A stretch of DNA of 55,554 nucleotides, taken from the IMG/VR virus record IMGVR_UViG_3300033148_006010, positions 1 to 55,554 of that record; one strand, written 5' to 3'. This document shows positions 4,401-53,462 of this stretch, piece after piece (position 1 is the stretch's first letter; the number at the start of each line of letters is the position of its first letter). A program made the position numbers and the translations under genes. This DNA comes from a virus. Its lineage: Duplodnaviria > Caudoviricetes. Below the pieces are notes generated by a model, which was not told where the DNA came from, searched no databases, and saw nothing but the letters and a program-made list of their open reading frames with translations.

Positions 4401-7120
4401 TGGCAAATATTATAGAAAGTATTAAACAAAGTGAAAGTTTAGAAGTTTATATTGCTAGACTAACTGGATTTCATTGGAAAAATGAAGGGGCTGGTAAGGA
4501 TTTGTTTGAATGTCCTTTATGTGGAGGGCATAACTGTTTTAAATTAGCTCCGCAGGGTTTTGTAAAATGTTTTCAATGTCAGTCTGTAGCATTTGATATT
4601 ATTCAGTTTAGGTCTTTATATCAGAATATTACATGGAGAGAGGCATTAAATAGATTTGCGGATGAATTAGGACTTAAAAAATATTATAGAAAAGATATAG
4701 ATTGGATAGGGATTCGTGAAACTGCTTGTCAAATTTCTAAAGATATTCTTTATTCTTGTCAAATGAAATATAAATTTCGTGGTAAAAAATATACTCCATT
4801 AAGTTATTTAGTTGATTATAGGCAACATTCTTACGATGCGATAAATTATTTTAGACTCGGTTTTAATGACGGTACATTAGTAGACAAATTGAAAGAAAAA
4901 TATTCGATGGAAACTATAAAATCAAGTGGTATAGATAAGATTCAAGATGGAGTTTTTTTATATCCATTTATCGCAAGTGAAGAGATTAAATATTTTCGAC
5001 TTAAAGACCCGAATAAACTAAAAAAATCTCAAATGTCAGAAAGTGTAAGAAGTGCTGGAGCTTATTGGTATAATCAAGATTGTATAAAAGATAATAATGA
5101 TGTTATTTGTGTTGAAGGAGAAGATGATGTTATATCACTTTGGGATGTGGGTGAAAACGCAATAGCATCTATTGGCAATATAACGATTGAACAAATTAAT
5201 TATCTTAAAACATTATCGCCTTCTACCGTATACAGTTGTTTTGATAATGATGATGAAGGGAGAAGAGATAGAGATAGATTGATTAAAAATTATGACAATA
5301 CAAAAACTTTTATTTTGAATTTGCCATCCGGAGAAAATGATATTGATGAAGCCTTAAAAAATGCTATTAGTAAAAAAGCTCTTATTCATCAAATGAAAAT
5401 TAATGCAGAAGCTCCATCTCCAGAAATGGTAAGCAACATTAAACAACGTCCCGATGGATATTTTATAGAAAAAACATATAAGAATTTTTCACAAGAGGTT
5501 AGATTAACTAATTGGATAGGATTTATAGAAGCAATTATAATTAGAGAAGAAGGAATAAGAGATAGAAAGGTGAAAATTAAAATAGGCAAATTTGAAACTA
5601 CTGTATTTATGGATGGAAACGTATTATCTAATGCTTCTCGATTTAGAGAATTTCTTCTAAATAATTGCGATATTACCTGTCTTTTTCAGGGTACTGATAA
5701 TGATTTAAATGCTTTAGTACAATACTGGGGATTAATTTATAATCCTATTATAGTAAAAGAAACCGAGTGTGTTGGAGAGATTGAAGAAGGTTTTATAGCT
5801 GATAATGTATTTTTTGGATTTAATAATGATATTAAGCCTATTATTGGTGGTTATTTAAATATAGACGATAAACATTCTATTAAAATACCTACAATTTCTA
5901 ATCAGGCTGGAAGTAGACATGAAATACCTTATTTTCCATTTCATCAACCTGCTGGCGGTATTGATAAATTTAAAGAGAATGTTTTCGATTTGTTAATTAA
6001 AAATCGCAATTTAAAGGTTGCTATTGCTATAGGGTGGATAAAGGCTACATTGTGGAGTAAGATGTTTTTTGATAAGCATAAATTTTTTCCATTAATGATG
6101 ATACATGGTAAAAAAGAAGCTGGAAAGACTATATTTAGTTCGTGGCTTATGAGTATGTTAGGGATGCGTGATGTCTCTCCTATTTCTTTAAGAGCTGGCG
6201 GTACTACTGCTGTAGGATTAGAAAGACGTTTAGCGTATTATTCAAGTTTGCCTATATGGACAGACGATTATAAAAACGAAGAATTTGAAGGACAAAAATT
6301 TCATACATTTTTTAGAAATATTTTTAATCGTGTATCAGCTTCTAAGGGTATTAAAAATGAAGAACGCAAAATTAGACAAGTAATAGTAAGAGGATGTTTG
6401 CTTGTAGATGGTGAAACATCACCTACAGATGCGGCTTTGAATAGCAGAATGGTAACTTTTGAACTTACGCAGGCAGAAAGGGTAGATAAATATTTTAATG
6501 ATATTGTTAAATTAGAACCAGATTTTGCTTATGTAGGATTTGATTGGTTAAAAAATAGGATTACTACTTATCCTAATTTTATAGCAAATTTTGGAGAGTT
6601 AAATGAATTGTTTCGTAAATCTATATCATCCCCTAGACAGGCACAAGTTTGGGCTGTAGCAGTTGCTTCTACGCTTACAGAGCCGTTTTTTGCTAAACAA
6701 AAAGATAAAATAATTAATTTTGCTGTTAGACTAGCTAATCACGAAATTAAAGAGCAAGAAAGCGAAGAAACTATAGGTATGCTTTGGGAGGCACTTGATA
6801 TATTACATAAGATGGGAAGAACAAACGAACAGTATATTAAATTTAATGGTTATGAGGCACAGTTACAAATACATTTAGCCGCACTTCTCGGGGCTATAAG
6901 TGGTGATTCCTCTACAAGAAGATATAAACTACCTAACGTAAGAGAAACCGCTAAGATCCTTAAACAAGAGCCATATTGCTTAGGGAACAAGCTATCTACA
7001 GTAGACAATAAGACTGCAAGGCGTTGGATAATAGACCTTAGTCATAAGCAACTTCCTGAAATTCTAAAAAATATGTTTTCTAATAGCGAACAATCTGAAC
7101 AAAATCTTGATGGATTATAG
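4400..7120 (+). CDS. DNA primase-helicase (Zn finger + TOPRIM + C-terminal P-loop helicase)
   Basis: CPLC...CFQC zinc finger; TOPRIM VEGEDD and FDNDDEG; Walker A HGKKEAGKT and Walker B IWTDD. Confidence 0.92.
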   Translation: MANIIESIKQSESLEVYIARLTGFHWKNEGAGKDLFECPLCGGHNCFKLAPQGFVKCFQCQSVAFDIIQFRSLYQNITWREALNRFADELGLKKYYRKDIDWIGIRETACQISKDILYSCQMKYKFRGKKYTPLSYLVDYRQHSYDAINYFRLGFNDGTLVDKLKEKYSMETIKSSGIDKIQDGVFLYPFIASEEIKYFRLKDPNKLKKSQMSESVRSAGAYWYNQDCIKDNNDVICVEGEDDVISLWDVGENAIASIGNITIEQINYLKTLSPSTVYSCFDNDDEGRRDRDRLIKNYDNTKTFILNLPSGENDIDEALKNAISKKALIHQMKINAEAPSPEMVSNIKQRPDGYFIEKTYKNFSQEVRLTNWIGFIEAIIIREEGIRDRKVKIKIGKFETTVFMDGNVLSNASRFREFLLNNCDITCLFQGTDNDLNALVQYWGLIYNPIIVKETECVGEIEEGFIADNVFFGFNNDIKPIIGGYLNIDDKHSIKIPTISNQAGSRHEIPYFPFHQPAGGIDKFKENVFDLLIKNRNLKVAIAIGWIKATLWSKMFFDKHKFFPLMMIHGKKEAGKTIFSSWLMSMLGMRDVSPISLRAGGTTAVGLERRLAYYSSLPIWTDDYKNEEFEGQKFHTFFRNIFNRVSASKGIKNEERKIRQVIVRGCLLVDGETSPTDAALNSRMVTFELTQAERVDKYFNDIVKLEPDFAYVGFDWLKNRITTYPNFIANFGELNELFRKSISSPRQAQVWAVAVASTLTEPFFAKQKDKIINFAVRLANHEIKEQESEETIGMLWEALDILHKMGRTNEQYIKFNGYEAQLQIHLAALLGAISGDSSTRRYKLPNVRETAKILKQEPYCLGNKLSTVDNKTARRWIIDLSHKQLPEILKNMFSNSEQSEQNLDGL

Positions 7121-16598: not shown

Positions 16599-17087
16599 AT
16601 GAGCAAGAGGTTAATAAAAGTGAAAATAAAAATAATAAGTAAGATATGGGTATTGGTATTAGTGGGGTTGCTTTCTGCTTGTGCTACACAAGAGCCTAAA
16701 GTAGACGGATGGAGTTTTATAGTACAAGATAAAAGAGAAGTAGTAAATATACGTTTAGGTATATTGTTTTTTGATTTTGATGAAAGCAATATAAAAACTA
16801 GTACGAAAGAAAATTTAGATAAAATTGTTACTTTGCTTTTGAGTAATGATTTTTTTGATATTGAAATACATGGGCATTGTGATAATAGGGGAACTGATGA
16901 GTATAATATGATTCTTGGAGGTAAGCGTGCTAGTGTCGTAGCTAATTATTTATTGGCTTGTGGAATAAATGCGAAAGATATAAGAGTTATTTCACATGGT
17001 GCGAAACAGTCGTTTAGTAATTTCCATTGGCAAAATCGCAGAGTTGAGATTATAGCAAAAACGAGAAATGCAATTAAAGGAACTTGA
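16599..17087 (+). CDS. OmpA-family / Pal-like peptidoglycan-binding lipoprotein
   Basis: Lipobox LLSAC; FFDFDES, GHCDNRGTDEYNMILGGKRA and NRRVEI motifs. Confidence 0.92.
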   Translation: MSKRLIKVKIKIISKIWVLVLVGLLSACATQEPKVDGWSFIVQDKREVVNIRLGILFFDFDESNIKTSTKENLDKIVTLLLSNDFFDIEIHGHCDNRGTDEYNMILGGKRASVVANYLLACGINAKDIRVISHGAKQSFSNFHWQNRRVEIIAKTRNAIKGT

Positions 17088-19683
17088 ACAGAACGTAAGT
17101 AACGTAGAAAATATAATTAACAGTTTAGAATCTGTAGAAGATTTAGAACAGTTGCTTTGGAATATAGAGCATCCTGATTTAGATTTTCCAGAGGTAGGAC
17201 TGGTTGAGTTTGTTTTGTCTGATAAGTATTTAGATTGTAAAGATGAAATATACGATAGTTGTTTAAATGATTTAAAGTCAATGGAAAAAGGCGGGCAGAA
17301 AAGAATTATATTAGAAGGAGCTCCTGGTTGTGGTAAATCTTTTGTTTCTTCATGTCTGATTTCTTATACATTAGCACGAACATTATCTTTAAGGAGTCCT
17401 CAAAAAACATTTGGTATGGCTAGAGGAACTTTTATATGTGCTATGAATATGGGAGTAAATGAAATAAATGCTAGGAATGTTATATTTAATGATGTAAAAG
17501 CAAGGATAGATAATTCTCCGTGGTTTCAAAAGTTTTTTCCTCCTGACCCTGAAATAAAATCTGCACTTAGATTTAGTAAGAATGTAGGGCTTATTCCTGG
17601 TAACAGTAAGATGACATTTCCTTTAGGATTTAATGTATTTTGTGCAGTTATGGATGATTGTGCTTGGTATCAAGATACAGATGAAAAAGATATAGCGAAA
17701 GAAATGTATGAACAATTAGATAAGAGAATATCAAGGCGTTATCCTACTTGTCCATGGGCTTATTTGATTATGGTTAGCAATCCTTCTTATAATAACAAGT
17801 TTATTGAAAAAATGCAAGAAAGGGCTTTTGCAGAACCTAATAAATATTGGGCTATGCGTAGAAAGATATGGGATGCGAAACCTTTTATGTATTGTGGAAA
17901 GACATTCGAATATAATGGCAGACAAATTCCTATAGAGCATAAAGATGATTACGAAAAAGACCCTGTATCTGCTGAAAGGGATTTAGAGGCTAAGCCATCC
18001 GCTTCTTTAATGCCATTTTTTAAGTCTATGATTCCAGTATATCAATCTCTAAATAAAGCCGTTAAAAATCCAGTAGAGGGAAAAGATTTTAATAGAATAT
18101 CGGAATCTTTTAAGCCAATAGATGTTAATTATTTTATACATTTAGATTTAGCCGTTAATAAATGTAGTGCGGCTCTTGCTATGAGTAGATGGCTTTCTAC
18201 AAATAAGATACGAGTTGAATTAATAATGAGGTTTGACCCTAAACAGCTTGGTGGGGAAATTAATTTTGAAGATATTAGAGAATATATTTATTTACTTAAG
18301 GATATGAAGTTTAATATTAGAAGATTGACGGCAGATGGTTTTAATTGTTTAGGCGGTAATACTGAAATTCCTTTGTTAAATGGCAATGTAAAGAAAATTA
18401 AAGATATTAAAGCAGGGGATTATGTTTATAGTTTGAATAATAATCAAGAAATAGTAGCCGGTAGGGTAAAATCAGATGCTAAAATGACTGGAATGAAAAG
18501 GATAATCAGAATTACTTTAGATAATGGACAAGTTATTGATTGTTCTGAAGAACATCCATTTTTAATGCGAGATAATATTTATAAAAGGGCTAATGATTTA
18601 AACATTGATGATAGTTTAATGCCTCTATATAAAAAGACAGGTATGTTAGATTTAAGTTCATATGAAATGACTTTTAATCCTAGATATAATAGATATGAGT
18701 ATACACATAGATTAATAGCAAGACAAATGAATATTTTAAGGAAAGGTTTAATAGTTTATCATAAAAACGGTAATAAAAAAGATAATTGTCCTACTAATTT
18801 AATGTCTGTGACCCATACAGAACATAGTAAATTACATAGAGATTTAGGTAGATATGCTTGTAGAATTATGCGTGCAAAATTAAGAAATATGCCTAAATCT
18901 ATTAAAATAAAGAATGAAAAATTTTTAATGAATTCTAAGATTTATCATATGTCAATTTTTAAAAATAAACATATAGAGGCAGGTAAAAAAAGTTGGATTA
19001 CTAAAACAAAGATGGGGCAAGAGTGTCCATTGGTACAATGGAGAAAAGATAATTCTGTTAAATATTTTCAATATATGAAAGAAGTATGGAGTAGAAAGGG
19101 ATATAAAGAAAGATTATCCAATAAAATATCAAAATCTATAAAAAGTTTATGGAATAACGAGGAATATAGAAAAAAAATGTCAGAAGTTCATAAAGGTAAA
19201 ATTCCATGGAATAAAGGAAAAGTTTTAAATCATAAAATTATTAACATAGAGCGATTGCCTATTTATATTGAAATGTATGATTTTGAGGTTGAAAAATATC
19301 ATAATTTTGCATTACAAGCTGGTATTTTTGTTCATAATTCTGTAGATTTTCTCCAGATAATGAAACGTAGAGGCATTACTGATTGTGATACGCTTTCATT
19401 AGATAGAACAGACGTACCTTATACTACATTTGGTTCAAAAGTATTAGAGGGATTAGTAGAATTTCCGTGGGTAAATATAGATAATGCCAGGGTTTTTGAA
19501 TCGCCACAAAGTCCAGAGGAATGGTTTATAAAAGAAGCTAAGACATTAGAAAGGGCTGGAAACAAAATTATAAAACCACCTAAAGGGAGTAAAGATGTTA
19601 TAGATGCTGTATGTGGTAGCGTATATAATGCTGTAGAAGTTGGAAATAAAAAAGCTAGAAAATTTTCTGTTAAAATTGTTTAA
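17068..19683 (+). CDS. terL: Terminase large subunit (intein-containing; 540 aa after splicing)
   Basis: Walker A GAPGCGKS, Walker B AVMDD, nuclease HLDLA, ADGF and SKDVIDA; upstream of portal. Confidence 0.95.
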   Translation: MQLKELEQNVSNVENIINSLESVEDLEQLLWNIEHPDLDFPEVGLVEFVLSDKYLDCKDEIYDSCLNDLKSMEKGGQKRIILEGAPGCGKSFVSSCLISYTLARTLSLRSPQKTFGMARGTFICAMNMGVNEINARNVIFNDVKARIDNSPWFQKFFPPDPEIKSALRFSKNVGLIPGNSKMTFPLGFNVFCAVMDDCAWYQDTDEKDIAKEMYEQLDKRISRRYPTCPWAYLIMVSNPSYNNKFIEKMQERAFAEPNKYWAMRRKIWDAKPFMYCGKTFEYNGRQIPIEHKDDYEKDPVSAERDLEAKPSASLMPFFKSMIPVYQSLNKAVKNPVEGKDFNRISESFKPIDVNYFIHLDLAVNKCSAALAMSRWLSTNKIRVELIMRFDPKQLGGEINFEDIREYIYLLKDMKFNIRRLTADGFNCLGGNTEIPLLNGNVKKIKDIKAGDYVYSLNNNQEIVAGRVKSDAKMTGMKRIIRITLDNGQVIDCSEEHPFLMRDNIYKRANDLNIDDSLMPLYKKTGMLDLSSYEMTFNPRYNRYEYTHRLIARQMNILRKGLIVYHKNGNKKDNCPTNLMSVTHTEHSKLHRDLGRYACRIMRAKLRNMPKSIKIKNEKFLMNSKIYHMSIFKNKHIEAGKKSWITKTKMGQECPLVQWRKDNSVKYFQYMKEVWSRKGYKERLSNKISKSIKSLWNNEEYRKKMSEVHKGKIPWNKGKVLNHKIINIERLPIYIEMYDFEVEKYHNFALQAGIFVHNSVDFLQIMKRRGITDCDTLSLDRTDVPYTTFGSKVLEGLVEFPWVNIDNARVFESPQSPEEWFIKEAKTLERAGNKIIKPPKGSKDVIDAVCGSVYNAVEVGNKKARKFSVKIV
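18346..19338 (+). mobile_element. Intein (331 aa) with HNH endonuclease and NUMOD3-like motif
   Basis: Starts CLGGNT, block B CSEEHPF, ends YHNFALQAGIFVHN followed by Ser; internal THRL...HKNGNKKDNCPTNL...EH and RKKMSEVHKGKIPWNKG. Confidence 0.95.
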
Positions 19684-19694
19684 GAGGTTTTAAA

Positions 19695-21332
19695 ATGGAT
19701 AATAAAGAACAGCATAAAATAGATAGAAGTAAAAAAGTTAGAGCTTATATTACTAAGGGTTTCGATGGACAGACAAGAGTTATTCCTGAAACCGAATTAG
19801 AGAAATATAGAGTTGCTAGGAATAAAGAAACAAATTTAAGTTCACAACAGTTAATGCAATCTGATTATATTATGGATTATACTGGCGAGAATTTAATTAA
19901 AGCTCCCTATAATTTATCTTATTTATGGCGATTTATGGAATTATGTACAGAACATTCTGCTTGTGTTAGACAAAAAGCTAGTGATGTATGTGGTTTAGGG
20001 TGGAAAATAGTAAAACGTAAAGGTATTAAAGATGCAAATATAGAAGAAAAAAACAAATTAGAAGCGTTTTTCGATTTTGGGAATCCCGACGAAACTTTTA
20101 CAGAAATAATAGAGAAAGTCTGGATTGATTATGAATCTATGGCAAATGCTTATTTAGAAGTTATTAGAAATCCTAATACTGGTGAGCCTGCGGCTTTATA
20201 TCATATTCCTGCACAGACTATTAAATGCGGAAAAATGAAAGATATTTTTATACAAATACGAGGTTTTAATAAAAAAATATTTAGAAGATTTAATACAGGA
20301 GATAGAGTTACTAAAGCATGGGCAAAGACTAAGATATATGGTGAATTATTAAAAGCAAAAAGTAATAAAAAGCTTAGTGACCCAAATTTTTTACTTGGAT
20401 GGGATTTTGAAAAAGCGACTTCTGAATTAATACAAATTAAAAATTATTCTTCGAGAAGTTCTTATTACGGTATTCCAGAATGGATAGCTTCACTTGGTGC
20501 TATACTCGGGAATGTGCAATGTAGAGATTATAATTTGAAATTTTTTGATAATAACGGTGTACCTCATTATGCGATTATTATTAAGGGTGCTGATTTAGAC
20601 CCTGATATGGAAAAAGTTATTGCTACATATTTTAGTCAAGAAATTAGAGGAGATGCACATAAAACATTAATTATACCTATTAACAGTCAAGAGGTAGAGG
20701 TTACATTTGAAAAACTTTCTACGGACATTAAAGATGCTTCTTTTAGAATGTATAGACAGGATAATAGAGATGAGATTATAAGAGCACACAGAGTGCCTTT
20801 TTCTAGGGTTAATGTAGCAATTCCTGGCAAACTTGGGGGTGGTGGAGTTTCTAGGGAAGAATCTGAAACATACAAAAAATCTATTATAGCTCCTAAACAA
20901 TTAGTTCTTGAACATAGAATTAATGAGAAAATTATTAAACGTGGTTTTGGTATTAATAGTTGGATTCTTAAATTTAACAAGTTAGATGCTACAGATGTAG
21001 AAACCGATATGAGAATAGATACTGCTTATGTAAAAAGCGGTATTAAGTCTATTAATGAGGCGAGAGAAAATTGTGGATTAGAACCTGTTGAAGGTGGTGA
21101 TAGAGTTTTTATTAATACTGCTACTGGAATGGTATTTTTAGATGAAATGGAAAGTATGTTAAGCGGACAGGCAATAGGTACACAAGCACAGCAAGAACAA
21201 AATCAAGTTACAGAAAAAGCATTGCAAGGATTACATGTTACATTACAGAAATTACTTGACGATAGAGAAGAATATAAAAAATCTACTCAAGGTTTAGTTG
21301 GAAAACTTATAAATAAAATATTAAATAAATGA
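19695..21332 (+). CDS. Portal protein (PBSX/HK97-like)
   Basis: YYGIPEW, FFDNNGVP, IIRAHRVP, SINEARE..GLEP motifs; follows TerL. Confidence 0.93.
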   Translation: MDNKEQHKIDRSKKVRAYITKGFDGQTRVIPETELEKYRVARNKETNLSSQQLMQSDYIMDYTGENLIKAPYNLSYLWRFMELCTEHSACVRQKASDVCGLGWKIVKRKGIKDANIEEKNKLEAFFDFGNPDETFTEIIEKVWIDYESMANAYLEVIRNPNTGEPAALYHIPAQTIKCGKMKDIFIQIRGFNKKIFRRFNTGDRVTKAWAKTKIYGELLKAKSNKKLSDPNFLLGWDFEKATSELIQIKNYSSRSSYYGIPEWIASLGAILGNVQCRDYNLKFFDNNGVPHYAIIIKGADLDPDMEKVIATYFSQEIRGDAHKTLIIPINSQEVEVTFEKLSTDIKDASFRMYRQDNRDEIIRAHRVPFSRVNVAIPGKLGGGGVSREESETYKKSIIAPKQLVLEHRINEKIIKRGFGINSWILKFNKLDATDVETDMRIDTAYVKSGIKSINEARENCGLEPVEGGDRVFINTATGMVFLDEMESMLSGQAIGTQAQQEQNQVTEKALQGLHVTLQKLLDDREEYKKSTQGLVGKLINKILNK

Positions 21333-22204
21333 TAACTATAGAAAAACATAAACAAGCGATAGAGATTGTAAAGAATACTTTACATTTGTTAAAAGTATCT
21401 TCTAAACAGTTGCGTATAGAGAAAAAGTTTGAATCACAATTAAGAGTTGTTTTTAATAAGCAAGAAAAAGAATTTTGGAGATTAGAAAAACGAGGTAGAT
21501 GGTTAGAAAAATGTTATATAAAAGCTCAACAAGATTTATCTAAAATTAAAAAGATGGGCATATCAGATAATCCTACTGAAAGAATAGGGTTCATTTCTAA
21601 AATGACAAAAGAATGGCGTAATAGTATAGATAATGATAATAACTTAGAAGAAGTTATATATAGTAATTATAAAGAAGGATATAATTTAGGTGGGCAGAAG
21701 GTTTTGACTGAATTTGCTATACAAGCGAATTTTAATTTAAGGGCTTTAAATGTTTTAGATGCTTTAGGTAAAAAAGCTCATTTAGTGGGTAAGGAAATAA
21801 ATGACGTTAGTTGGGATTTACTTAATAATAAGATTGCTGATAGTTTTTGGAAAGAAGGGAATGGAATAGAACAAGTTACAGCAGATATAAAGGGAATGTA
21901 TAAAGAAACCTATTATCATAGAGGTAGGAATATAGCAAGGACTGAAACTGGTTATGCTGTAAGTGAAGCTAGTTATCAATCTTATAAAAAGGCAAATGTA
22001 CCTATGTTAGAATGGATAGCTGAAATAGATGCTTGTAAATTATGTTCTCCTTTAAGAGGGCAAAAAGTAAAAACTGGAGAATATTTTGATAATGGTTTGG
22101 GGTGGAGAGGGAAAAGACCTTTAGTTCATCCTAGTTGTAAATGTGATATTGTTGGATATGTATCAGATGATTTTATTCCTAGTAAATACTGGGATGGAAA
22201 ATAA
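21329..22204 (+). CDS. Minor head morphogenesis protein (SPP1 gp7 / Mu F-like)
   Basis: IARTET, CKLC and PLVHPSCKC motifs. Confidence 0.9.
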   Translation: MITIEKHKQAIEIVKNTLHLLKVSSKQLRIEKKFESQLRVVFNKQEKEFWRLEKRGRWLEKCYIKAQQDLSKIKKMGISDNPTERIGFISKMTKEWRNSIDNDNNLEEVIYSNYKEGYNLGGQKVLTEFAIQANFNLRALNVLDALGKKAHLVGKEINDVSWDLLNNKIADSFWKEGNGIEQVTADIKGMYKETYYHRGRNIARTETGYAVSEASYQSYKKANVPMLEWIAEIDACKLCSPLRGQKVKTGEYFDNGLGWRGKRPLVHPSCKCDIVGYVSDDFIPSKYWDGK

Positions 22205-22222
22205 CTTAAGGGGGCTATAATT

Positions 22223-23794
22223 ATGCCGTGGGAAGAAACTGATGATTTTATACGAAGTGGGCATGGAGATAAGAATAAATATTCTACATGTCGTACTACT
22301 ACTTTCGATGATAAATTACCGAAAGGGATAAAAGCAGTATATTGTAAACGAAAAGATAATAGTAAATGGGAAATTCAAAGTTATTTATTTCCAAAATCTC
22401 AAGGATGGAATATGGGCAATGCTAAGAGTTGGTTTAAATCTCATAATAAATCTATTAATAAGAATGTTATAGCATATCTTACTAGAAATTTAATTAAAAG
22501 TGGTAATATGCCAGCAATGATTATAGATACTTCTATTGCAAAAATGATAAACGGTGAGATTGTTAATGTTATAGTTAAGACAAAAGAATTTAAAAAGTAT
22601 TTAAAAGAACCTATAGCTTTAGCGGGAGAGGACAATAAAATATATACGATTGTTACTTTAAATGAACCGATAAAAGTAGATAAAAAGCAATTTAATGTAT
22701 TAATTGATAAACATGGTATAGATGAAATTAAATTGGAACAATTAATACAAAAAAACAAAGAATGGAATAATGATATTTTATGGTTATATTCATTTAAGAT
22801 GTTACGAAAATTTGATATGCCTATTGATTTTTATATTCCGCCTGATACTAAGGATTGGATTGATGGTGTTAATATAATGAATTTACAAATATTAGATATT
22901 ACTAAGGAGTTGTTGCAAAAGTCTAGTAAAGGTGAATTACAAGATTTACATGAAAAGATACATAGTATTTGGAAATTACTTAAAAAAATAGAAGTTACGG
23001 AAAAAAGAATTAAAACTATTGAATTACTTATTAATAAGCATAATATTATTAAGGAAATATTTGTAGAAAAAGAGATTGAACATCAAGATATAGATACTTT
23101 AGATAATATAGGGAATGATAATAATGAAGAAGATTTACAGAAAATAATTAGACAAGAAGGTAAAGAATGGGTTTTGTATTCAAGTGATGGTAAAAAAGTT
23201 TTAGGAAGGCATAAATCAGAAAAAGAAGCGTTAGCACAAGAAAGGGCTATCTTAGTTAATAAGCAGAGAATAGAAAAATTTATCCCTATCTGCAAAATTG
23301 ATGAAGAAAAATGTATTGTGTATGGAGAAGTTTTAGTACCTGATGTTGTAGATGCTCAAGGGGATAAGATAACAGTAGAAGAAATAGAAAAAGCATGTCA
23401 TTGGTATATGGAAAACTCTCAAAAAAGTAAAGTTATGCACAAAGGCGATTTTATTGAAACTGCTGTAGTAGAAAACTATATAGCTCCTATAGATATGACA
23501 GTAAAAAATATGCAAGGTGAAAGTTATAATATTAAAAAAGGTACTTGGATTATGGCTACTAAGATTTACGACGATAAAATTTGGCAACAGGTTAAATCTG
23601 GAGAACTTACTGGGTATTCTATAGGTGGTGTAGGATATAAAGAAGAAATTCAAATGCGAGATACATTTAATTGTAGTTGTATTAAATGTGGTTATAAAAT
23701 TATGAAAAGTGAACAGCATTGTTCAGAGCTTAAATGTCCTAAATGTGGCGGACAAATGCGAAGGGTTGAAAGACCTAGTACGGGGCAAGAATAA
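22223..23794 (+). CDS. Multidomain XkdF-like prohead protease
   Basis: C-terminal IVYGEVLVPDVVDAQGD...EIEKA...H...GTW...W..VKSGELTGYSIGG; extra N-terminal domains and a C-terminal Cys ribbon. Confidence 0.85.
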   Translation: MPWEETDDFIRSGHGDKNKYSTCRTTTFDDKLPKGIKAVYCKRKDNSKWEIQSYLFPKSQGWNMGNAKSWFKSHNKSINKNVIAYLTRNLIKSGNMPAMIIDTSIAKMINGEIVNVIVKTKEFKKYLKEPIALAGEDNKIYTIVTLNEPIKVDKKQFNVLIDKHGIDEIKLEQLIQKNKEWNNDILWLYSFKMLRKFDMPIDFYIPPDTKDWIDGVNIMNLQILDITKELLQKSSKGELQDLHEKIHSIWKLLKKIEVTEKRIKTIELLINKHNIIKEIFVEKEIEHQDIDTLDNIGNDNNEEDLQKIIRQEGKEWVLYSSDGKKVLGRHKSEKEALAQERAILVNKQRIEKFIPICKIDEEKCIVYGEVLVPDVVDAQGDKITVEEIEKACHWYMENSQKSKVMHKGDFIETAVVENYIAPIDMTVKNMQGESYNIKKGTWIMATKIYDDKIWQQVKSGELTGYSIGGVGYKEEIQMRDTFNCSCIKCGYKIMKSEQHCSELKCPKCGGQMRRVERPSTGQE

Positions 23795-24049
23795 ATGATT
23801 AAAAGCTATTATAATCGTTTTAAATTTAATAAAAAGCATGGAATAGGACTTTTAAAGAATATTATTAGTCTTTTAAGTATATTATATGTGGATAAAAAGT
23901 CTTTAATCTATATTATTTTTACTATAATAGGCAATTATCTTGCTTATTATTATTTTAATATTAGAGATATTAGTTTATGGCTTATAACTCTTTTTGCACA
24001 AGGTTTAATATACGAAGTTATTATTAAAGGGAAAGAGGATATAGTTTAA
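23795..24049 (+). CDS. Small membrane protein
   Basis: 2-3 hydrophobic segments; abuts both neighbours. Confidence 0.65.
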   Translation: MIKSYYNRFKFNKKHGIGLLKNIISLLSILYVDKKSLIYIIFTIIGNYLAYYYFNIRDISLWLITLFAQGLIYEVIIKGKEDIV

Positions 24050-24050
24050 T

Positions 24051-24326
24051 ATGGGAATGACAGCAATACAGGTTATTGGAGATATAGCCGCAAGTCATGG
24101 TTATAGAGTTATTATTGATTCTACTACTACAGCAGGAAAAATTTATTTTGGATTTGCAAAATCGGGAGCGAAAAAAAGTGATGCGGCTTGGTTTATTTTA
24201 TGTTTAGATAGAACAGTTAGTGGAATACAGGATTTTGAATGGGCTAATGGCGGTGGATTATATAATAGAAATAAAATATGGAATCATAGAGCAGATGGAA
24301 CTTATATTTATCAACAGGATATATAA
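24051..24326 (+). CDS. Small putative virion protein / adaptor
   Basis: YFGFAKSGA...AAWFI...WANG...IWNHR pattern; head-module location. Confidence 0.6.
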   Translation: MGMTAIQVIGDIAASHGYRVIIDSTTTAGKIYFGFAKSGAKKSDAAWFILCLDRTVSGIQDFEWANGGGLYNRNKIWNHRADGTYIYQQDI

Positions 24327-25490
24327 ATGAAATATTTTTTATCAATATTGTTTTTAATTTTTAGTTTGCAAATTGCAAATTGTTTAGAATATGATTTTGA
24401 TAATTATAATCCTTTATTACCTTATGGATTTGAACAAGTGCAATCTACACAATCTTATGCAAATGGTATTCAAGTTGCTATAGATACTAATACTTTAAGA
24501 ACAGATTTAAATATAGAAATTATTAATAGAATTGCCGAAGATAATCTTATAAGTGATGCAACAGGTCAATTAGCATTAGAATTACAAAACGAAATTTCTT
24601 CTCTTTATTATAATATTGGCGGAGATACACTAGAAGGGGAGATGGATGCCGATTCTAACAATATAGTAAATGCAGGTTCTATGACATTTACTACAGACGG
24701 AATGAAAATATATTCAGACGGGAACTCAATACAACAAAGCACGACTACATTTAATGGACAGATAGATATTAATCTGGACGGCATTAATCAAATGATATCT
24801 ATTACTCAAACACACGACAATAGTATTAATAATCAAGCATTGATTTATGTCAATGACGATAGAACAAAGACTTATGCAAATCCTAAAGAAGCTACATTTT
24901 ATGCAGACGTATATCAAAATCTTGCTTACGGGTTCGCTACTACCAGGGATATATACGCTAATGGTGCGGTAAGGGCGTACACTTTTAACCCGGCTAATAG
25001 TATTGCAATGATGGACTATGCTTCATTGTATTTAGGCAGTTCAAATGATTCATGGATAAGATGGGGGCCATGGGGAACTGCTCATAGTGCCAGATGGGTT
25101 GTAAAGGTCAATAATGCTGGCTATAGCGGGAATATTGATATTTTAGAGGGGGGCGAGTTTGCAAACAGCTTAAATCACGGGTTACAGGCAAACCCAACGC
25201 TTAATATTTGGAATGATGGGGCGACAGGATGTTTGAGAATGACCTCTGACGGAGATTTCGGAGTGATGACTGTATATGAAAGAAGTGCGGGGGTGGAAGG
25301 AGTAAAGATAGATACACATACTTACGTAGGTGATGGTGGTGGTTTTTATCCTGATTGGGTAGACCCGCTTCCCAGTTCCGGTTATGACGCAGGGGCGGTA
25401 GTGGTTTCTACAACTACAGGATATGTACTTTACATTTCTACTGAAAAGGTAACATCCGTAAATTCATGGCAGAAAGTAGCCGACCAATAG
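24327..25490 (+). CDS. Signal-peptide-bearing fibre-like protein
   Basis: MKYFLSILFLIFSLQIANC leader; short coiled coil, GGDTLEGEMDADSNNIVN fibre motif, beta-rich G/S/T/N body. Confidence 0.65.
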   Translation: MKYFLSILFLIFSLQIANCLEYDFDNYNPLLPYGFEQVQSTQSYANGIQVAIDTNTLRTDLNIEIINRIAEDNLISDATGQLALELQNEISSLYYNIGGDTLEGEMDADSNNIVNAGSMTFTTDGMKIYSDGNSIQQSTTTFNGQIDINLDGINQMISITQTHDNSINNQALIYVNDDRTKTYANPKEATFYADVYQNLAYGFATTRDIYANGAVRAYTFNPANSIAMMDYASLYLGSSNDSWIRWGPWGTAHSARWVVKVNNAGYSGNIDILEGGEFANSLNHGLQANPTLNIWNDGATGCLRMTSDGDFGVMTVYERSAGVEGVKIDTHTYVGDGGGFYPDWVDPLPSSGYDAGAVVVSTTTGYVLYISTEKVTSVNSWQKVADQ

Positions 25491-25498
25491 GAGATATT

Positions 25499-25789
25499 AT
25501 GAAATACATTACATTAACAATAATGATAATCTTTTGCACTTTGCAAAATGCAAATGCACTGAATCATGTCAACGTAGATTTCAACAAAATAGAACAGGCG
25601 ATAGAAGCATTAGAGCAATATAAAAGAGTGCTGACTGTTTATCAAGACGGGAAGGTTCATATAGGCAGACAGGATATAGATATTGATTCTAATGATGCCC
25701 TTAAAATTTGGATAGAGAACAAACTGGACACCTTGGCTATTGATGCTAATACTAAAATGAATGACCTTAAATCGGAGATAACGAAATAA
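25499..25789 (+). CDS. Signal-peptide-bearing small helical protein
   Basis: AGGAG RBS before ATG 25499; MKYITLTIMIIFCTLQNANA with AXA site. Confidence 0.7.
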   Translation: MKYITLTIMIIFCTLQNANALNHVNVDFNKIEQAIEALEQYKRVLTVYQDGKVHIGRQDIDIDSNDALKIWIENKLDTLAIDANTKMNDLKSEITK

Positions 25790-25846
25790 TAAAAATATAT
25801 AAAATAAAAAGTTGATGATACTTATATTATCCTATAAGGAGGCATA

Positions 25847-26515
25847 ATGAAACAATATGATTTATCGAATGTAAAAACAAATGAAGTATCTCTTGTAGAT
25901 TCAGGAGCTATTAAGAAAAAATTTATAATTTATAAAAATAAAAATTCAAAATTGAACATTGGAGGGAATAGATCTATGACCTTAGAAGAATTAAAAAAGC
26001 TAGGGCTTATTGATGATGAAGAAATAAATAAACTTAGTAAGACAGATAAAAGTGCTGAGGAAATTGAAACTTCATTAATTCAGCGACTCGTAGAATCTGT
26101 AAAAAAGGTTCTATCTTCTGAAAAAGTTGAAAAAGATAGTGATGGAAAAGATGGTGATGATAAAAATAAGGAAGGGGATGAGAAAGCAGATGTTGCTAAG
26201 ACTAAAGAAGATATAAAAAAGTTGCAGGATAAAATTGATGAGCTTACTAAGTTGCTTGATGAAAGCAAAAAGAGTCAAGATTTGCTTCAGAAAATTAGCG
26301 AATCCAAAGACCTTAAGGAATTTGCACAATATCTTAAGAAATCTAAGGAGCTTTTTAAGAAAACTGAAAACCCTGATAAAGATACTATGATAGTTAAATC
26401 TCTTGAAGGAATTATACAAAGACTAGAGAAAGTAGAGCTTAAATCTAATGGTATTGATGGCAATGAAGATATACAAAAAAATAAGTCATCAAAATGGGGC
26501 GGAGCATTTCTATAA
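25847..26515 (+). CDS. Capsid scaffold protein with N-terminal protease-like strand; nested start at 25976
   Basis: AAGGAGG RBS; EVSLVDSGA..KKF...K; charged coiled coil ending KWGGAFL just before the capsid gene; internal GGAGG plus in-frame ATG. Confidence 0.75.
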   Translation: MKQYDLSNVKTNEVSLVDSGAIKKKFIIYKNKNSKLNIGGNRSMTLEELKKLGLIDDEEINKLSKTDKSAEEIETSLIQRLVESVKKVLSSEKVEKDSDGKDGDDKNKEGDEKADVAKTKEDIKKLQDKIDELTKLLDESKKSQDLLQKISESKDLKEFAQYLKKSKELFKKTENPDKDTMIVKSLEGIIQRLEKVELKSNGIDGNEDIQKNKSSKWGGAFL

Positions 26516-26570
26516 TTGAATTGAAAAATTAATAATAAAAATTATAAATATTATTTTGAGGTAAAAACGT

Positions 26571-27566
26571 ATGCAAACACCTGAACAGTTAATTGAAAAA
26601 GCGATAATTCAGACTGGGGATATGTCTGGAACTGGTGAAGGCGGTTTACTACAACCTGAAATAGCGAATAAATTTGTTGATTACGTTATTGACCTTTCGG
26701 TAATGACAAATAATGCGAGGATGGAAAAAATCACACCTGACCAGAAGTATATTGATAAGGTGGCAGTTGGAAGTCGTGTTGCAGAAGCTAAGTCACAAGC
26801 AACAACGACTACTACTCGTAGAGGAATATCTACTGAAAGAGTTACGATAACGTGTAAACAGATTATAGTTCCGTGGGAAATTTCAAAAGAAACTCTTGCT
26901 CGTAATATAGAAGGGGAAGCTTTTGAAGACCATGTAGCAAAAATGATGGCAACACAGTTGTCAAATGACTTGGAAGAGTTGTTTATTACTGGAGATACAG
27001 ACTCTAGCGATGCATTTCTTGCACTTACTGATGGTTGGGCTAAAGATGCTTCTGAAAATGGGCATATTTATGATGCAGAAAGAAAAGACCTTGATAGTGT
27101 TTCTGATGCTAAAACCGTATTCGGGAATATGATACGTTCTATGCCAAATAAGTTTAAGAGAAATCGTGCTAACCTTAGATTTTTTATGGGTACGAATGTT
27201 GCTCAAGACTACATTGATGCACTTTCAGCAAGAGCAACAACGCTTGGAGATAAGGCACTTTCCGAGAGATTCACGCTTACTCCGTTTGGTATAGAATTAG
27301 TTGAAGTTCCGACTATTCCGACTAATCTATCGTATAGTTCTCCGACGTATTCCGATAATTCGTATATATTGCTTACACATTATCAGAATTTGATAGTGGC
27401 TTTCGAGGTTCAGTATGCTGGCTCACAGTCAGGTATTGAATTATTGAAAGATAGGGATATATATAAGAATACACGGCAATATTGTTTACATCTGTCTGCG
27501 GATTGTGCGATACAAGAAGATGATGCTATTGTTTATGCAGAGAATGTTAAATCTGTATCTGGATAA
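26571..27566 (+). CDS. Major capsid protein (HK97 fold, XkdG/YqbE-like)
   Basis: GGLLQPE.ANKF, NIEGEAFEDH, NDLEELFITGDT, DGWAK motifs; position. Confidence 0.93.
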   Translation: MQTPEQLIEKAIIQTGDMSGTGEGGLLQPEIANKFVDYVIDLSVMTNNARMEKITPDQKYIDKVAVGSRVAEAKSQATTTTTRRGISTERVTITCKQIIVPWEISKETLARNIEGEAFEDHVAKMMATQLSNDLEELFITGDTDSSDAFLALTDGWAKDASENGHIYDAERKDLDSVSDAKTVFGNMIRSMPNKFKRNRANLRFFMGTNVAQDYIDALSARATTLGDKALSERFTLTPFGIELVEVPTIPTNLSYSSPTYSDNSYILLTHYQNLIVAFEVQYAGSQSGIELLKDRDIYKNTRQYCLHLSADCAIQEDDAIVYAENVKSVSG

Positions 27567-27586
27567 GAATTAAAAAACTTTAAATA

Positions 27587-27663
27587 TGTATGGGAGTGGT
27601 TAGAATTAATTATGTTAGTAAGAGATTATCTGAAAACTATTAAACATCTAGCCACCCCATACA
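27587..27663 (+). promoter_or_regulatory. Long-loop stem between the capsid gene and glycosyltransferase gene
   Basis: TGTATGGGAGTGGTTAGA pairs with TCTAGCCACCCCATACA (one bulge, one G-U); no U-tract. Confidence 0.5.
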
Positions 27664-27681
27664 GTAAGTTAGGAGAAGAAA

Positions 27682-29604
27682 ATGCGATTTGTTTTAAATG
27701 ATAAATTAGGTAGTTTTAGATTTAGAACTTATACTTTTTTGCCGAAAAAAGTAATAGATGTTATTAATGAAAATGATATATGTGATTTACTAAAAAATAA
27801 AAAAGTAAAAGCTCTTGATTTAAAAGTCGTAAAAACTGAAACTATTCCTATTGTAGAAAAGAAAGCAAAAGAAGGACAATTAAGAATAGGAGCTTTGAGG
27901 GTCGGAGGATTAGGAGATACTTTACAGTTAGGTTGTCATGCTAGAGCTATCAAGCGTAAATTTCCTGCATGCTTTTTAACTGTTTATGTGCGTGATAAAA
28001 TAGCTGTAGAAATTATGCAATATAATAAGTGGATTGATAAAACTATACAAGTTGGTATGCAAAGTTGGGATAATATTGTAGATAGAGAATCTATTAGATA
28101 TGATATTTTTTATGATTTTAGATATGTGGTAAAAGTTATATTTAATACTGATAAATTTCCTAAGTATAAAAAGCAGACTGAAGATATTTTTGAACAGTAT
28201 AAAAAAATATATAATAATTTCTGCAAAAGTAATTATAAATTAGAAAAATTAAATACTAATTTAATAGATTTTAGTAATAAAACTGCATGCTTAGATGGTT
28301 CTGAAAATGATTTAACTTTTGATTTAAAGAATAATTTTTGTGGTTATGCTAGAGTAATGGCGAAACAAAAATATATAACGATTCATGTTTCTTCTGGTAA
28401 ATATAGAATAACTAAATCGTGGAATATTGAAAGATGGCAACAGATTGTTAAATATCTTATTAGTTTGGGTTATACTATTATACAGTTAGGAAGCAAGGGA
28501 GAGCCAGTTATTAACAATGTAGTTGATTTAACTGGATTATCGAATATACAAGAAACTGCTTGGATTTTACATGGTTCGCAATTTCATATAGACACAGAAG
28601 GAGGATTAGTACATTTAGCGAAAGCAGTTAATACTCAATCTATAGTTATATTTGGTGCTACTCCAGTAGAATGTTTTGGTTATAAAGGGAATATTAATAT
28701 TAGAGATAACAGTTGTTCTCCTTGCTGGTATAGAACAATAGACTGGGAGCAAAAATGTCCTGATGGTTACGAAACGCCTATATGTTTAGACAAAATAAGC
28801 GTTGATTTGGTTAAAGAAGCGATTAATGTATTTCATATACAGTTTAAAGACAAAAAGGAAATAGTTAGTAAAATAGAAAGACCTTTAGTTAGTATTATTA
28901 TTCCAGTTTATAATCAATTAAAATATTTGAAAGTTACAATAGATTCGATATTAAATAACACGAAAGAAAATATCGAATTAATTATTATTGATAATGGTTC
29001 TGGAAATGAAGTTAAAGAATATCTTAATAATTATAAAAGCTCGAAGATGATTCATATTATTACTAACGATAAAAATTTAGGATTCGGAAAAGCGAATAAT
29101 CAAGGTGCAAAAAGAGCACAGGGAAAATATTTATTATTTTTAAATAGTGATGTCAAAGTAAGTAATGATTGGCTTACTAAGTTACTTGATGGAATTAATG
29201 AGGAAAAAATTGGCATGGTTGGGGTAGCTGGTGGCAGATTAGATAAAAATTTTAGATGTACTGGTATAGTTAGAACTAATGATGCAAGTTATAATTATTT
29301 AGAAGGATGGTGTTTATTATTAGAAAAGCAATTATTCGATGATATTGGTGGATGGGATGAAAGATTTTTTGCTTTTAGTGAAGATGCAGATTTAAGTTAT
29401 AGAATTAAAAAATGCGGTTATAAATTAAAAATAGTTGAAGGGGTTCATATTCATCATTATAGAAATAGAACGGTTTATAATCAAAATGATTTTGATGTTG
29501 CAAAAATGTCATTAGAAAGTAGTAATAAACTAAAGATAAAAATAAAAAGTAGAGGAGGGAGTAAAAATGAAGTATGCAAAATTAAAGAAAGGCAGTTCTT
29601 ATAG
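27682..29604 (+). CDS. Fusion: YqbF-like N-domain + GT9 (heptosyltransferase-like) + GT2 glycosyltransferase
   Basis: RVGGLGD, KSWNIERW, DLTG, DTEGGLVHLA...IFGAT (GT9); VSIIIPVYN, IDNGS, NLGFGKANNQG, FLNSD, GGWDE...EDADL (GT2). Confidence 0.9.
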   Translation: MRFVLNDKLGSFRFRTYTFLPKKVIDVINENDICDLLKNKKVKALDLKVVKTETIPIVEKKAKEGQLRIGALRVGGLGDTLQLGCHARAIKRKFPACFLTVYVRDKIAVEIMQYNKWIDKTIQVGMQSWDNIVDRESIRYDIFYDFRYVVKVIFNTDKFPKYKKQTEDIFEQYKKIYNNFCKSNYKLEKLNTNLIDFSNKTACLDGSENDLTFDLKNNFCGYARVMAKQKYITIHVSSGKYRITKSWNIERWQQIVKYLISLGYTIIQLGSKGEPVINNVVDLTGLSNIQETAWILHGSQFHIDTEGGLVHLAKAVNTQSIVIFGATPVECFGYKGNINIRDNSCSPCWYRTIDWEQKCPDGYETPICLDKISVDLVKEAINVFHIQFKDKKEIVSKIERPLVSIIIPVYNQLKYLKVTIDSILNNTKENIELIIIDNGSGNEVKEYLNNYKSSKMIHIITNDKNLGFGKANNQGAKRAQGKYLLFLNSDVKVSNDWLTKLLDGINEEKIGMVGVAGGRLDKNFRCTGIVRTNDASYNYLEGWCLLLEKQLFDDIGGWDERFFAFSEDADLSYRIKKCGYKLKIVEGVHIHHYRNRTVYNQNDFDVAKMSLESSNKLKIKIKSRGGSKNEVCKIKERQFL

Positions 29605-51631: not shown

Positions 51632-52332
51632 GTATAATAGGTGCGTGTGTGGTTTATAATAATCAACATATTTTTCATAAACCATTAGAAACATTTAGAG
51701 CTTTATGTGATAAAATAATTATAGTAGATGATTGTTCTGGATTTTTTTATAAAGGAATGATTCAAAAATATTATAATAAGAATAATTGGCGAGTATATGC
51801 ATTAGGCAAAAAAACGAAGAAAGAAATTGAAAGACGTTCTAAATTATGGAATTTAATTTGTGAAGATAGTACTGAAAATGATTGGATTGTTTTGCTTGAT
51901 TCAGATGAATCTTATCACGAAAAAGACTGGAAGCATTTGTTAGATTTAATGAATCAATATAAAAACGATGACCATATACGATATATTGCTACTAGATTAT
52001 ATAACATGTGGAGCGAAACGGAATATAGAATAGATGGTTACTGGAATCCTAAATTTGAATTAAAAAGGCGAATTTTTAAACTTAAAAAAGGAGATTATGT
52101 GCCTAGAAATTTTAATCCGAATATTATAGAATGTGGCGAAGTTCCTAGTTATGTTTTCGGATTAAGTGGTATAAATACGGAATGTAAATTGCTTCATTGG
52201 GGCTATGTTTTACCCAAAGAAAGACAGCGTAAATACGAATTTCATAAAAAAGTAGACCCTGAAGGAAAATTTCATTTATCTTCTCATATAGACAGTATAA
52301 TTCAAAAACCTACATTGACGACATTGACATGA
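51628..52332 (+). CDS. GT-A glycosyltransferase (GT2-like)
   Basis: IIVDDCS, WIVLLDSDE, LLHWGY. Confidence 0.85.
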   Translation: MSIIGACVVYNNQHIFHKPLETFRALCDKIIIVDDCSGFFYKGMIQKYYNKNNWRVYALGKKTKKEIERRSKLWNLICEDSTENDWIVLLDSDESYHEKDWKHLLDLMNQYKNDDHIRYIATRLYNMWSETEYRIDGYWNPKFELKRRIFKLKKGDYVPRNFNPNIIECGEVPSYVFGLSGINTECKLLHWGYVLPKERQRKYEFHKKVDPEGKFHLSSHIDSIIQKPTLTTLT

Positions 52333-53462
52333 AAAAAATAGCATTAATTAATCCTGCAAGTTCTTTTTTAGTTCATGATGGAGATAGACCACCTTTAAAT
52401 CTTGCTTATCTTGCTACAAGTGTTAGGCAATCACACGATATAAAAATTTTTGATTTTTCTATAAATAATCATTTAAAATTACTCAGAGAAATTAGAAAAT
52501 ATAATCCTGATATTATTGGATATACTGCTACTACTCCTACTTTTCCTGAAACTGTAAGATTATTAAAAGAAATATCGGTTATTGTACCGACAGCTATAAA
52601 TGTTATCGGTGGTGTCCATGCTACAATTATGCCTAAATATTGTTTAAAATGGTTTGATTATGTAATTATAGGTGAAGCTGATTTTAGTTTTAAGAAATTT
52701 TGTAGCGAAGAAAAACCGAAAGATAGAATTATTAAATCTGATACGATATATAAAATTGATGGACTATTACCAGCACGAGATTTATTGCCTATGAATAAGT
52801 ATAACATGCAATTAGATAACGAAAAATGTACAATTATAATTACTTCAAGGGGATGCCCTTATGGATGTATTTATTGTAGTTCGATTGCTGGTAAAAGAGT
52901 AAGATTAAATAGTGCCGAAAATGTTGTTAATGAAATTGGTGATATAATGAGTAAATATAATTATAGAAGTTTTTATTTTCTTGATGATATATTTACTATA
53001 GATAGATTTCGGGTATTTGAAATTTGTAGATTAATAAGAGAAAGAAAATTGAATATTGAATTTAGAATTACTACTAGAATTGATTTAGTTGATAAGGTTA
53101 TGTTAAATGTTTTAAAAGCATCTGGTTGTAAAATGATTTGTTATGGTTTAGGATCTGGTTCCGATAGAATGTTAAAATTTTATAATAAGAAATTTCAAGT
53201 ACAAGATATTAAAAGAGTTGTTAATATGACTAAACAAGTTGGCATTGAAATAAAAGGGTTTTGGATGCATTCTAAATATGAAAATATAGAGGATGGAAAC
53301 GATACTGATAGTCTTATAAAGGAATTAAATTTAAAAGAAAATGGCATATACGATTTAGTTGTATATCCAGGTTCTGAATTGTGGCGAAGGGAAATGAAAA
53401 ATATAGAGCCAGATATTCAATATTTTGAAAAATTATATCATGGAGGAAAGAATAATGCGTAA
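52329..53462 (+). CDS. Cobalamin-binding (class B) radical SAM enzyme
   Basis: PPLNLAYLA, GGVHAT, GEAD, TSRGCPYGCIYC, FLDDIF, YPGSELW. Confidence 0.92.
   Translation: MKKIALINPASSFLVHDGDRPPLNLAYLATSVRQSHDIKIFDFSINNHLKLLREIRKYNPDIIGYTATTPTFPETVRLLKEISVIVPTAINVIGGVHATIMPKYCLKWFDYVIIGEADFSFKKFCSEEKPKDRIIKSDTIYKIDGLLPARDLLPMNKYNMQLDNEKCTIIITSRGCPYGCIYCSSIAGKRVRLNSAENVVNEIGDIMSKYNYRSFYFLDDIFTIDRFRVFEICRLIRERKLNIEFRITTRIDLVDKVMLNVLKASGCKMICYGLGSGSDRMLKFYNKKFQVQDIKRVVNMTKQVGIEIKGFWMHSKYENIEDGNDTDSLIKELNLKENGIYDLVVYPGSELWRREMKNIEPDIQYFEKLYHGGKNNA

Follow-up and report, generated by a model that had tools for sequence, protein, structure and literature searches.

Prohead proteases need to be packed into the procapsid and to be restrained from cutting prematurely, and in two described kinds of relative of the enzyme considered here the elements of the protease lie in a single chain. 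In HK97 gp4 their order is core, serine motif and hairpin, the motif GMSVGF being followed some 25 residues on by REISVCTFPAN, within the match to PF04586 (residues 19–160). In the XkdF-type proteins of Lactococcus phage 28201 (gp33) and Bacillus phage vB_BtS_B83 (gp09) the same hairpin module comes first, the core begins about 40 residues in, and a scaffold tail closes the chain; both arrangements are as an earlier reading of the present DNA, the sequence-only reading, had stated them. The window studied here, that is, the whole stretch of 55,554 nucleotides (nt) given as record IMGVR_UViG_3300033148_006010 of a virus of the Caudoviricetes, resembles the two XkdF-type loci in its head-module slot, between a Mu F-like protein and a phrog_1623 capsid, and in the C-terminal tail of its scaffold, but differs in that its core, 42% identical to that of 28201 gp33 and 38% identical to that of B83 gp09, ends another protein, while the hairpin opens a core-less scaffold. 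It differs in the same way from HK97 gp4, since the elements which there form one chain lie in the window on two open reading frames (ORFs). We favor as the probable explanation a two-gene XkdF/HK97-type prohead serine protease, in which the hairpin docks in trans onto the core and ties the protease to the scaffold.

In the literature on XkdF/HK97-type prohead proteases and scaffolding no description of such a split was found, nor any account of how XkdF-type enzymes are packaged and yet kept from early cutting; passages of PMC7824862 do not describe the split.

A protease core and its hairpin on two genes

PF14550 (Peptidase_S78_2) matches residues 356–474 of the 523-amino-acid (aa) ORF over profile positions 5–125 of 126 (expect value, E, 4.1e-31), scoring 108 bits where the cut-off is 24 and 111.2 bits in a second scan, and the core carries the motifs VMHKGD (His406) and GYSIGG (Ser466), of which His406 and Ser466 are invariant in all 8 close relatives and in 45 of 45 split-type cores. 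PF04586, the HK97-type Peptidase_S78 family, gave no match in this core at E up to 0.1, and an hhalign comparison of the core with HK97 gp4 fell in the expected region at E 0.14, which is not significant. After the core come Cys484, 486, 489, 500, 505 and 508, forming a ribbon of the type CxxC...CxxC, and then the stop codon.

The hairpin is found at the beginning of the scaffold ORF (25847–26515), which opens with MKQYDLSNVKTNEVSLVDSGAIKKKFIIYK. When a profile that drew only on single-chain XkdF proteins (the N-terminal modules of 21, non-redundant) was searched against the 952 six-frame ORFs of the window, its best match was to scaffold residues 3–33 (E 1.1e-5), and this is well above chance, as the next best of those ORFs reached only E 0.73; in the 523-aa ORF no hairpin module was among the ten best matches listed (E up to 5.2). 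PHROG 3017, which comprises head maturation proteases and protease-scaffold fusions (402 positions), divides at the same place, with positions 33–159 matching the 523-aa protein and positions 2–33 matching scaffold residues 3–35 (E 0.003), and the architecture of that family, hairpin, core and scaffold in one chain, is not the one found in the window. The sequence-only reading had described the 523-aa protein as an XkdF core with its His, its GYSIGG motif and a Cys ribbon but no strand of its own, and had placed the missing strand at the head of the scaffold ORF about 2 kb on, after four genes; both descriptions hold.

Searches by sequence for relatives of the scaffold returned only the window's own protein, and the relatives were obtained instead from genomic context. 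Among three related scaffolds 22 of the 34 module positions are invariant, against 57 of the 188 in the rest of the protein (Fisher p 1.9e-4). The last 39 residues of the scaffold align, weakly (E 0.027), with the C-terminus of the B83 fusion, and from this alignment the 222-aa ORF looks like a fusion protein minus its core. In both 28201 gp33 and B83 gp09 the PF14550 match covers the core only (residues 39–155 and 41–157, respectively), which is why the module would have been overlooked in annotation. By hhalign the module falls on the expected residues 139–153 of HK97 gp4, although weakly (E 0.089). Taken with the single-chain profile, this supports homology of the module both with the stretch behind the Ser motif of HK97 gp4 and with the one at the head of the single-chain XkdF proteins.

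The features of the head module on which the argument rests are the following:

19695–21332, + strand: portal protein, 545 aa, which opens the head module (PF04860, E 9.2e-31; phrog_12)
21329–22204, + strand: Mu F-like head morphogenesis protein, 291 aa (phrog_115, E 5.7e-16; PF04233, E 6e-6, 27.4 bits, under the cut-off of 29.6)
22223–23794, + strand: protease protein, 523 aa, with N-terminal region, XkdF core and Cys ribbon (ORF; 7 relatives at 52–61% identity)
22223–22453, + strand: N-terminal module of about 77 aa, common to other head protease/scaffold proteins
23288–23644, + strand: XkdF-type protease core, residues 356–474 (PF14550; His406 codon 23438–23440, Ser466 codon 23618–23620)
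23672–23746, + strand: Cys ribbon, residues 484–508, missing in 7 close relatives
23795–25789, + strand: four inserted ORFs of 84, 91, 387 and 107 aa (ORF list)
25836–25842, + strand: AAGGAGG, ribosome-binding site of the long scaffold form (sequence)
25847–26515, + strand: scaffold ORF, long form, 222 aa, directly upstream of the major capsid gene
25853–25945, + strand: hairpin module, scaffold residues 3–33 (single-chain module profile, E 1.1e-5; phrog_3017 positions 2–33)
25961–25978, + strand: GGAGGG and in-frame ATG 25976, candidate nested start for a 179-aa scaffold lacking the hairpin (sequence)
26571–27566, + strand: major capsid protein, 331 aa (phrog_1623, E 2.4e-82)

The seven relatives of the 523-aa protein share its N-terminal region and its core, and in none of them does the module precede the core, nor does any of them have the ribbon. 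The N-terminal 77 aa or so are 47–59% identical to the start or the interior of unrelated long ORFs in three of the surveyed loci (L004–L006), and match more weakly in about 30 further loci, in long and otherwise unrelated head-module proteins (L004–L037). The ribbon is a mobile module of head protease/scaffold proteins, present also in L082, L004, L053, L090 and L117: it stands after the core in the window and before it in L082, in L053 and L090 it is part of the scaffold ORF, behind the hairpin, and in L004 it occurs within a different, 664-aa protease/scaffold-like protein. A small module before the core, KEWVLYSSDGKKVLGRH... (residues 309–346; 23147–23260), matches phrog_3684, and is present in 4 of the 8 members of the clade and cleanly missing in the other 4. 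An Atlas search with residues 1–310 gave sub-threshold, ASCH-like structural rows only; the matches to ASCH-domain clusters, over residues 90–220 or so (22490–22880), are a weak lead for the passenger region.

Protease and scaffold genes are separated in the window by 2,052 nt with four ORFs on the same strand (84, 91, 387 and 107 aa), the first of them hydrophobic, and signal-peptide-like starts are also listed for the group (91, 387 and 107 aa). None of them reaches the curated cut-off of a Pfam family or has a credible PHROG match, the only hits being sub-threshold ones of the 387-aa ORF to phrog_1798 and of the 107-aa ORF to three unrelated Pfam families, and no homologue of any of them occurs in the 128 loci fetched. 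No flanking repeats that would mark the four ORFs as a mobile element were found. In locus L003 the protease ORF ends in TGA TAA and the module-bearing scaffold ORF begins at the next codon, in the same frame and 3 nt apart, and in L039 the scaffold ORF begins 1 nt after the protease stop, in another frame. Since the two genes are adjacent in both of these relatives, the four ORFs are an insertion peculiar to the window; this insertion, the ribbon and the candidate nested start are the window's specific traits.

Conservation of the split arrangement

The sequence-only reading had presented the split as a feature of one phage, and in this respect it has to be abandoned. The survey comprised 129 sources, the window among them (12 metagenome loci, the best 80 of 530 IMG/VR loci from a scan with a 6-sequence core alignment, and two annotated phages), and in 95 of these a core was recognized at E 1e-5 or better. 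Twenty-five of the 95 loci have single-chain forms, in which the module precedes the core; in the remaining 70 the ORF of the core itself has no module. These proportions are biased, because split-type cores served as queries in this survey and in the protein survey below. In 64 of the 70 the module profile finds the module within 0–20 residues of the start of a downstream ORF, and in a further four Pakpunavirus-like loci (L045–L048) a diverged module with an insertion can be read by eye in the same place, so that 68 of 70 module-less cores keep a downstream ORF which bears it. One of the exceptions, L043, is a contig that ends 388 nt after the core; in the other, L109, a stretch of 5 kb shows no module. 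The division over two genes and their pairing are real, old and widespread.

At the protein level, 13,441 out of 1.84 billion cluster representatives matched a profile at E 0.001, and among the best 150 of them 143 are module-less and end no more than 15 residues past the core, two have the module before the core, and five, taken as proteins only, are module-less with longer tails. In a quick maximum-likelihood tree of 82 cores, 23 single-chain forms together with L109 make up one clade (Shimodaira–Hasegawa-like approximate likelihood ratio 99) among the split forms, and the window groups with L003 and L039 (support 100); the tree, which has a midpoint root only, speaks to the grouping of the forms and not to the order of the split and fusion events. 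One protein, P0027, carries core, module and scaffold within a single chain in the HK97 order.

The distance between the two genes varies greatly, the gaps in 53 non-redundant split pairs ranging from -17 to 2,052 nt (median about 13) and reaching at least 200 nt in 12 of them; the window's gap is the largest, and its 2-kb separation is the extreme of a range. Another natural separation of core and hairpin is seen in L048, a Pakpunavirus-like metagenome locus, where a 198-aa ORF (6323–6919), by eye similar to GIY-YIG homing endonucleases, lies between the core ORF and the hairpin-scaffold ORF.

The same two-gene layout exists in cultured phages, those of Pakpunavirus and others; in Pseudomonas phage Zigelbrucke, a Pakpunavirus, a 156-aa core ORF (orf051) is overlapped by a ‘prohead scaffold’ ORF (orf052) that opens with a diverged module. 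This layout differs from that of the window in having adjacent genes, a short core protein with neither N-terminal passenger nor ribbon, and an insertion in the module. In the records the two genes of the Pakpunavirus type are annotated separately, and the core gene is often named ‘DNA methyltransferase’, a label that many phage records and PHROG 1530 also give to the gene bearing the core, and which seems to have been transferred from fusion proteins. In five loci (L051, L073, L091, L117 and L120) the core terminates very long ORFs of 1,256–1,791 aa, which suggests that the protease takes large passenger proteins along into the head.

Proposed docking of the hairpin and alternative explanations

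In the explanation that we favor, the putative catalytic core, with His406 and Ser466, forms the C-terminal domain of the 523-aa protein, and the final beta-hairpin of its fold is made up of the opening residues of the scaffold, about 33 of them. Once translated, the long scaffold form would dock by its hairpin beside the Ser466 strand of the core, which would tie the protease and its 340-aa N-terminal passenger to the scaffold, so that both would be built into the procapsid, and the docked hairpin would probably also finish the wall of the active site. Given the four genes inserted between the two parts, such a partnership would need neither adjacency nor coupled translation. A second start, at ATG 25976, would give a scaffold without hairpin, and consequently only a fraction of the scaffold molecules would carry the protease.

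This docking was modelled with core residues 343–482 and scaffold residues 1–43 (45 matched rows each) in three runs and three controls, which gave scores of 0.78, 0.77 and 0.78 against 0.00, 0.00 and 0.31. The score mark applied is reached by 58 of 80 solved complexes and by 2 of 110 mismatched pairs, counts that hold only roughly because our own alignments were used. The runs share at least 67% of their contacts, with a predicted local distance difference test (pLDDT) of the partner of at least 51, and place peptide residues 6–15 antiparallel to core residues 466–472, the strand of Ser466, and in contact with residues 390–395 and 401–406, beside His406. Compared with its controls, the model supports binding of the hairpin to the core and docking in trans, and the check suggested in the sequence-only reading, a complex prediction with the first 43 aa of the scaffold, came out in favor of docking. 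Viral proteases that depend on a peptide partner are well known, such as the adenovirus protease with pVIc, the flavivirus NS3 with NS2B, and the hepatitis C virus NS3 with NS4A. They would offer a possible working analogy, in which a beta-strand from a partner completes, activates or localizes a protease, though there is no homology and the window's side of the comparison is a docking model.

The second start of the scaffold bears on how many of its molecules would carry the hairpin. AAGGAGG (25836–25842) lies 4 nt upstream of ATG 25847 and GGAGGG (25961–25966) lies 9 nt upstream of the in-frame ATG 25976, and so the two strong ribosome-binding sites noticed earlier are in place. The Met at 25976 is kept in 3 of 3 members of the clade, each with a Shine–Dalgarno (SD)-like site. 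Among 50 non-redundant split scaffolds, 24 have a Met in the 22 residues that follow the module, where 34% would be expected (binomial p 0.036), and an SD-like site 4–16 nt upstream precedes 18 of these 24, compared with 56 of 234 later control Mets (Fisher p 1e-6) and with some 20% of the remaining codons of that stretch. From this enrichment a hairpin-less scaffold form is likely, although not universal, in about a third of the lineages, the window's included. In lambda, the nested genes C and Nu3 have an in-frame internal start that yields a shorter scaffold, and the long product carries the whole protease; in the window the long scaffold product would carry the hairpin only, and the use of the internal start is predicted from the sequence.

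The trans completion by the long scaffold that the sequence-only reading had proposed, and that would restrict activity to the procapsid, is partly supported: the conserved split, the docking model and the conserved second start speak for it, and the predicted fold of the core on its own speaks against it. AlphaFold2 gave, for the core alone (45 sequences), a model with pLDDT 81.6 and predicted template modelling (pTM) score 0.73, its last strand, which bears the Ser, being the least confident of the strands. This model can be superposed on T4 gp21 (5jbl_A) with Z 9.7 and a root-mean-square deviation (rmsd) of 3.2 over 117 aligned residues, residues 3–136 of the model lying on 2–152 of the 165 of the chain (Foldseek probability 0.99), and on the proteases of varicella-zoster virus (Z 5.3, rmsd 3.0, 90 aligned) and human cytomegalovirus (Z 3.9, rmsd 3.0, 89 aligned). 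The predicted core thus has a structural likeness to solved members of the assemblin-like fold of phages and herpesviruses; by sequence, neither a single-chain XkdF protein nor HK97 gp4 had any relative among the solved structures.

Several points count against the proposed explanation. The confident fold of the isolated core means that it may be stable and active by itself, and the existence of single-chain relatives means that the success of the complex model may reflect the likeness of the family and would not be independent evidence. In the complex the pLDDT of the partner is only 51–57, and the confident interface comprises peptide residues 1–19, leaving outside it the most conserved positions of the module, Ala21 and Lys30. 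The model of the full 523 aa is poor (pLDDT 61.3, pTM 0.32), which would still allow for completion in cis by the N-terminal region or the ribbon. To these must be added the faint match of the module to HK97 gp4, L109, the five module-less representatives with longer tails, and the bias of the queries.

The alternative that best withstands the evidence is that the core is self-sufficient, and that the module serves the scaffold, in folding, oligomerization or contact with the portal, or is a leftover of a fusion, maintained because it holds the start site. It would explain the isolated fold, which covers residues 2–152 of gp21 in the model, the definition of PF14550 without the module, and the cases with no module at all (L109 and 5 of the 150 representatives). 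It explains less well why 68 of 70 module-less cores have kept a downstream module ORF across deep divergence, why conservation is about twofold higher in the module than in the remainder of the scaffold, and why in HK97 gp4 the hairpin lies inside the protease domain, and it has to contend with a complex model that passes its controls; we hold it to be not very likely.

It could also be that the module acts as a pseudo-substrate, a cleavage site or an inhibitor in the active-site cleft, so that the protease would be held or silenced on the scaffold until it released itself. Proteases often bind their substrates as an added beta-strand, and in the model peptide residues 14–15 touch Ser466 and the residues preceding His406; a segment that is fixed in the single-chain enzymes and in the curated S78 domain fits a structural element better, and such a role for the module seems improbable.

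A third possibility is completion of the fold in cis, by the Cys ribbon or by a strand of the N-terminal region, with the module of the scaffold redundant in this phage. The ribbon occupies, indeed, the place of the hairpin in the HK97 order, and the full-length model is too poor to judge the matter, but all 7 close relatives do without the ribbon, and in those with downstream DNA in view, L003 and L039, the adjacent scaffold ORF still bears the module; moreover, the ribbon follows the module within the scaffold ORF in L053 and L090, in L082 it precedes the core, and the profile matches listed for the 523-aa ORF include nothing like the module, so that we regard this course as highly improbable.

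Lastly, that read-through, frameshifting or coupled translation fuses the two ORFs into one chain, as the single frame and the 3 nt between the ORFs of L003 might suggest, has practically no chance of being correct, for it is refuted by the window's own sequence, with 2,052 nt and four ORFs in between, and it is opposed by the two consecutive stops in L003, by the different frame in L039, and by the occurrence of all three frame offsets among the 53 pairs (0 in 11, +1 in 17 and +2 in 25), offsets which together with the range of the gaps mean that recoding is not the general link and in the window is impossible.

The head module and the meaning of the split

The protease gene belongs to the head module, between the portal and Mu F-like genes and the major capsid gene, in a sequence of about 30% GC whose long ORFs lie nearly all on the + strand; CheckV estimates the completeness of the virus record at 52%. 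A promoter scan of positions 21800–27800 found 35 sites against 34.3 expected, so that no promoter can be claimed at the split, and no terminators. A scan of genome contigs found no prophage relatives. Beside the portal gene, an 871-aa ORF (17068–19683), presumably the large terminase, contains an intein (Intein_splicing, residues 434–757) with an HNH endonuclease (HNH_3, residues 545–587). Directly after the major capsid gene comes a protein of 640 aa (27682–29604) that combines glycosyltransferase domains of the GT9-like and GT2 kinds and may be concerned with capsid glycosylation, and a glycosyltransferase protein is kept at the same place after the capsid gene in L003 (6851–7795). Elsewhere in the window a B12-binding radical SAM protein is encoded (52329–53462).

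The observations can be joined in a wider picture, which we put forward as a possibility and with considerable doubt. The XkdF proteases would be mostly obligate two-component enzymes, with a hairpin cofactor that closes the active site, and proteolysis would be licensed only where there is long scaffold, in the assembling procapsid; the ratio of long to short scaffold, through the nested start, would set the number of proteases and passengers per head, and the single-chain enzyme of the PBSX type, from which the family has its name, would be a later fusion.

In any case, a fold divided between an enzyme and its scaffold would be a simple physical answer to the packaging and to the timing of the protease. 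The survey that had been suggested, of split against fused forms, separated 70 cores with no module in their own ORF from 25 single-chain ones among 95 loci, and the family to which the answer would apply is a large one, with its thousands of cluster representatives and with cultured Pseudomonas phages among its members. The window, because four unrelated genes lie between the two parts, offers the clearest case in nature for their working as separate proteins. A fold so divided would also explain why in many phages the core stands at the end of large passenger proteins (up to about 1,790 aa), why annotation pipelines give these genes the names ‘DNA methyltransferase’ or ‘hypothetical’, and what could fix the count of protease molecules in each head.

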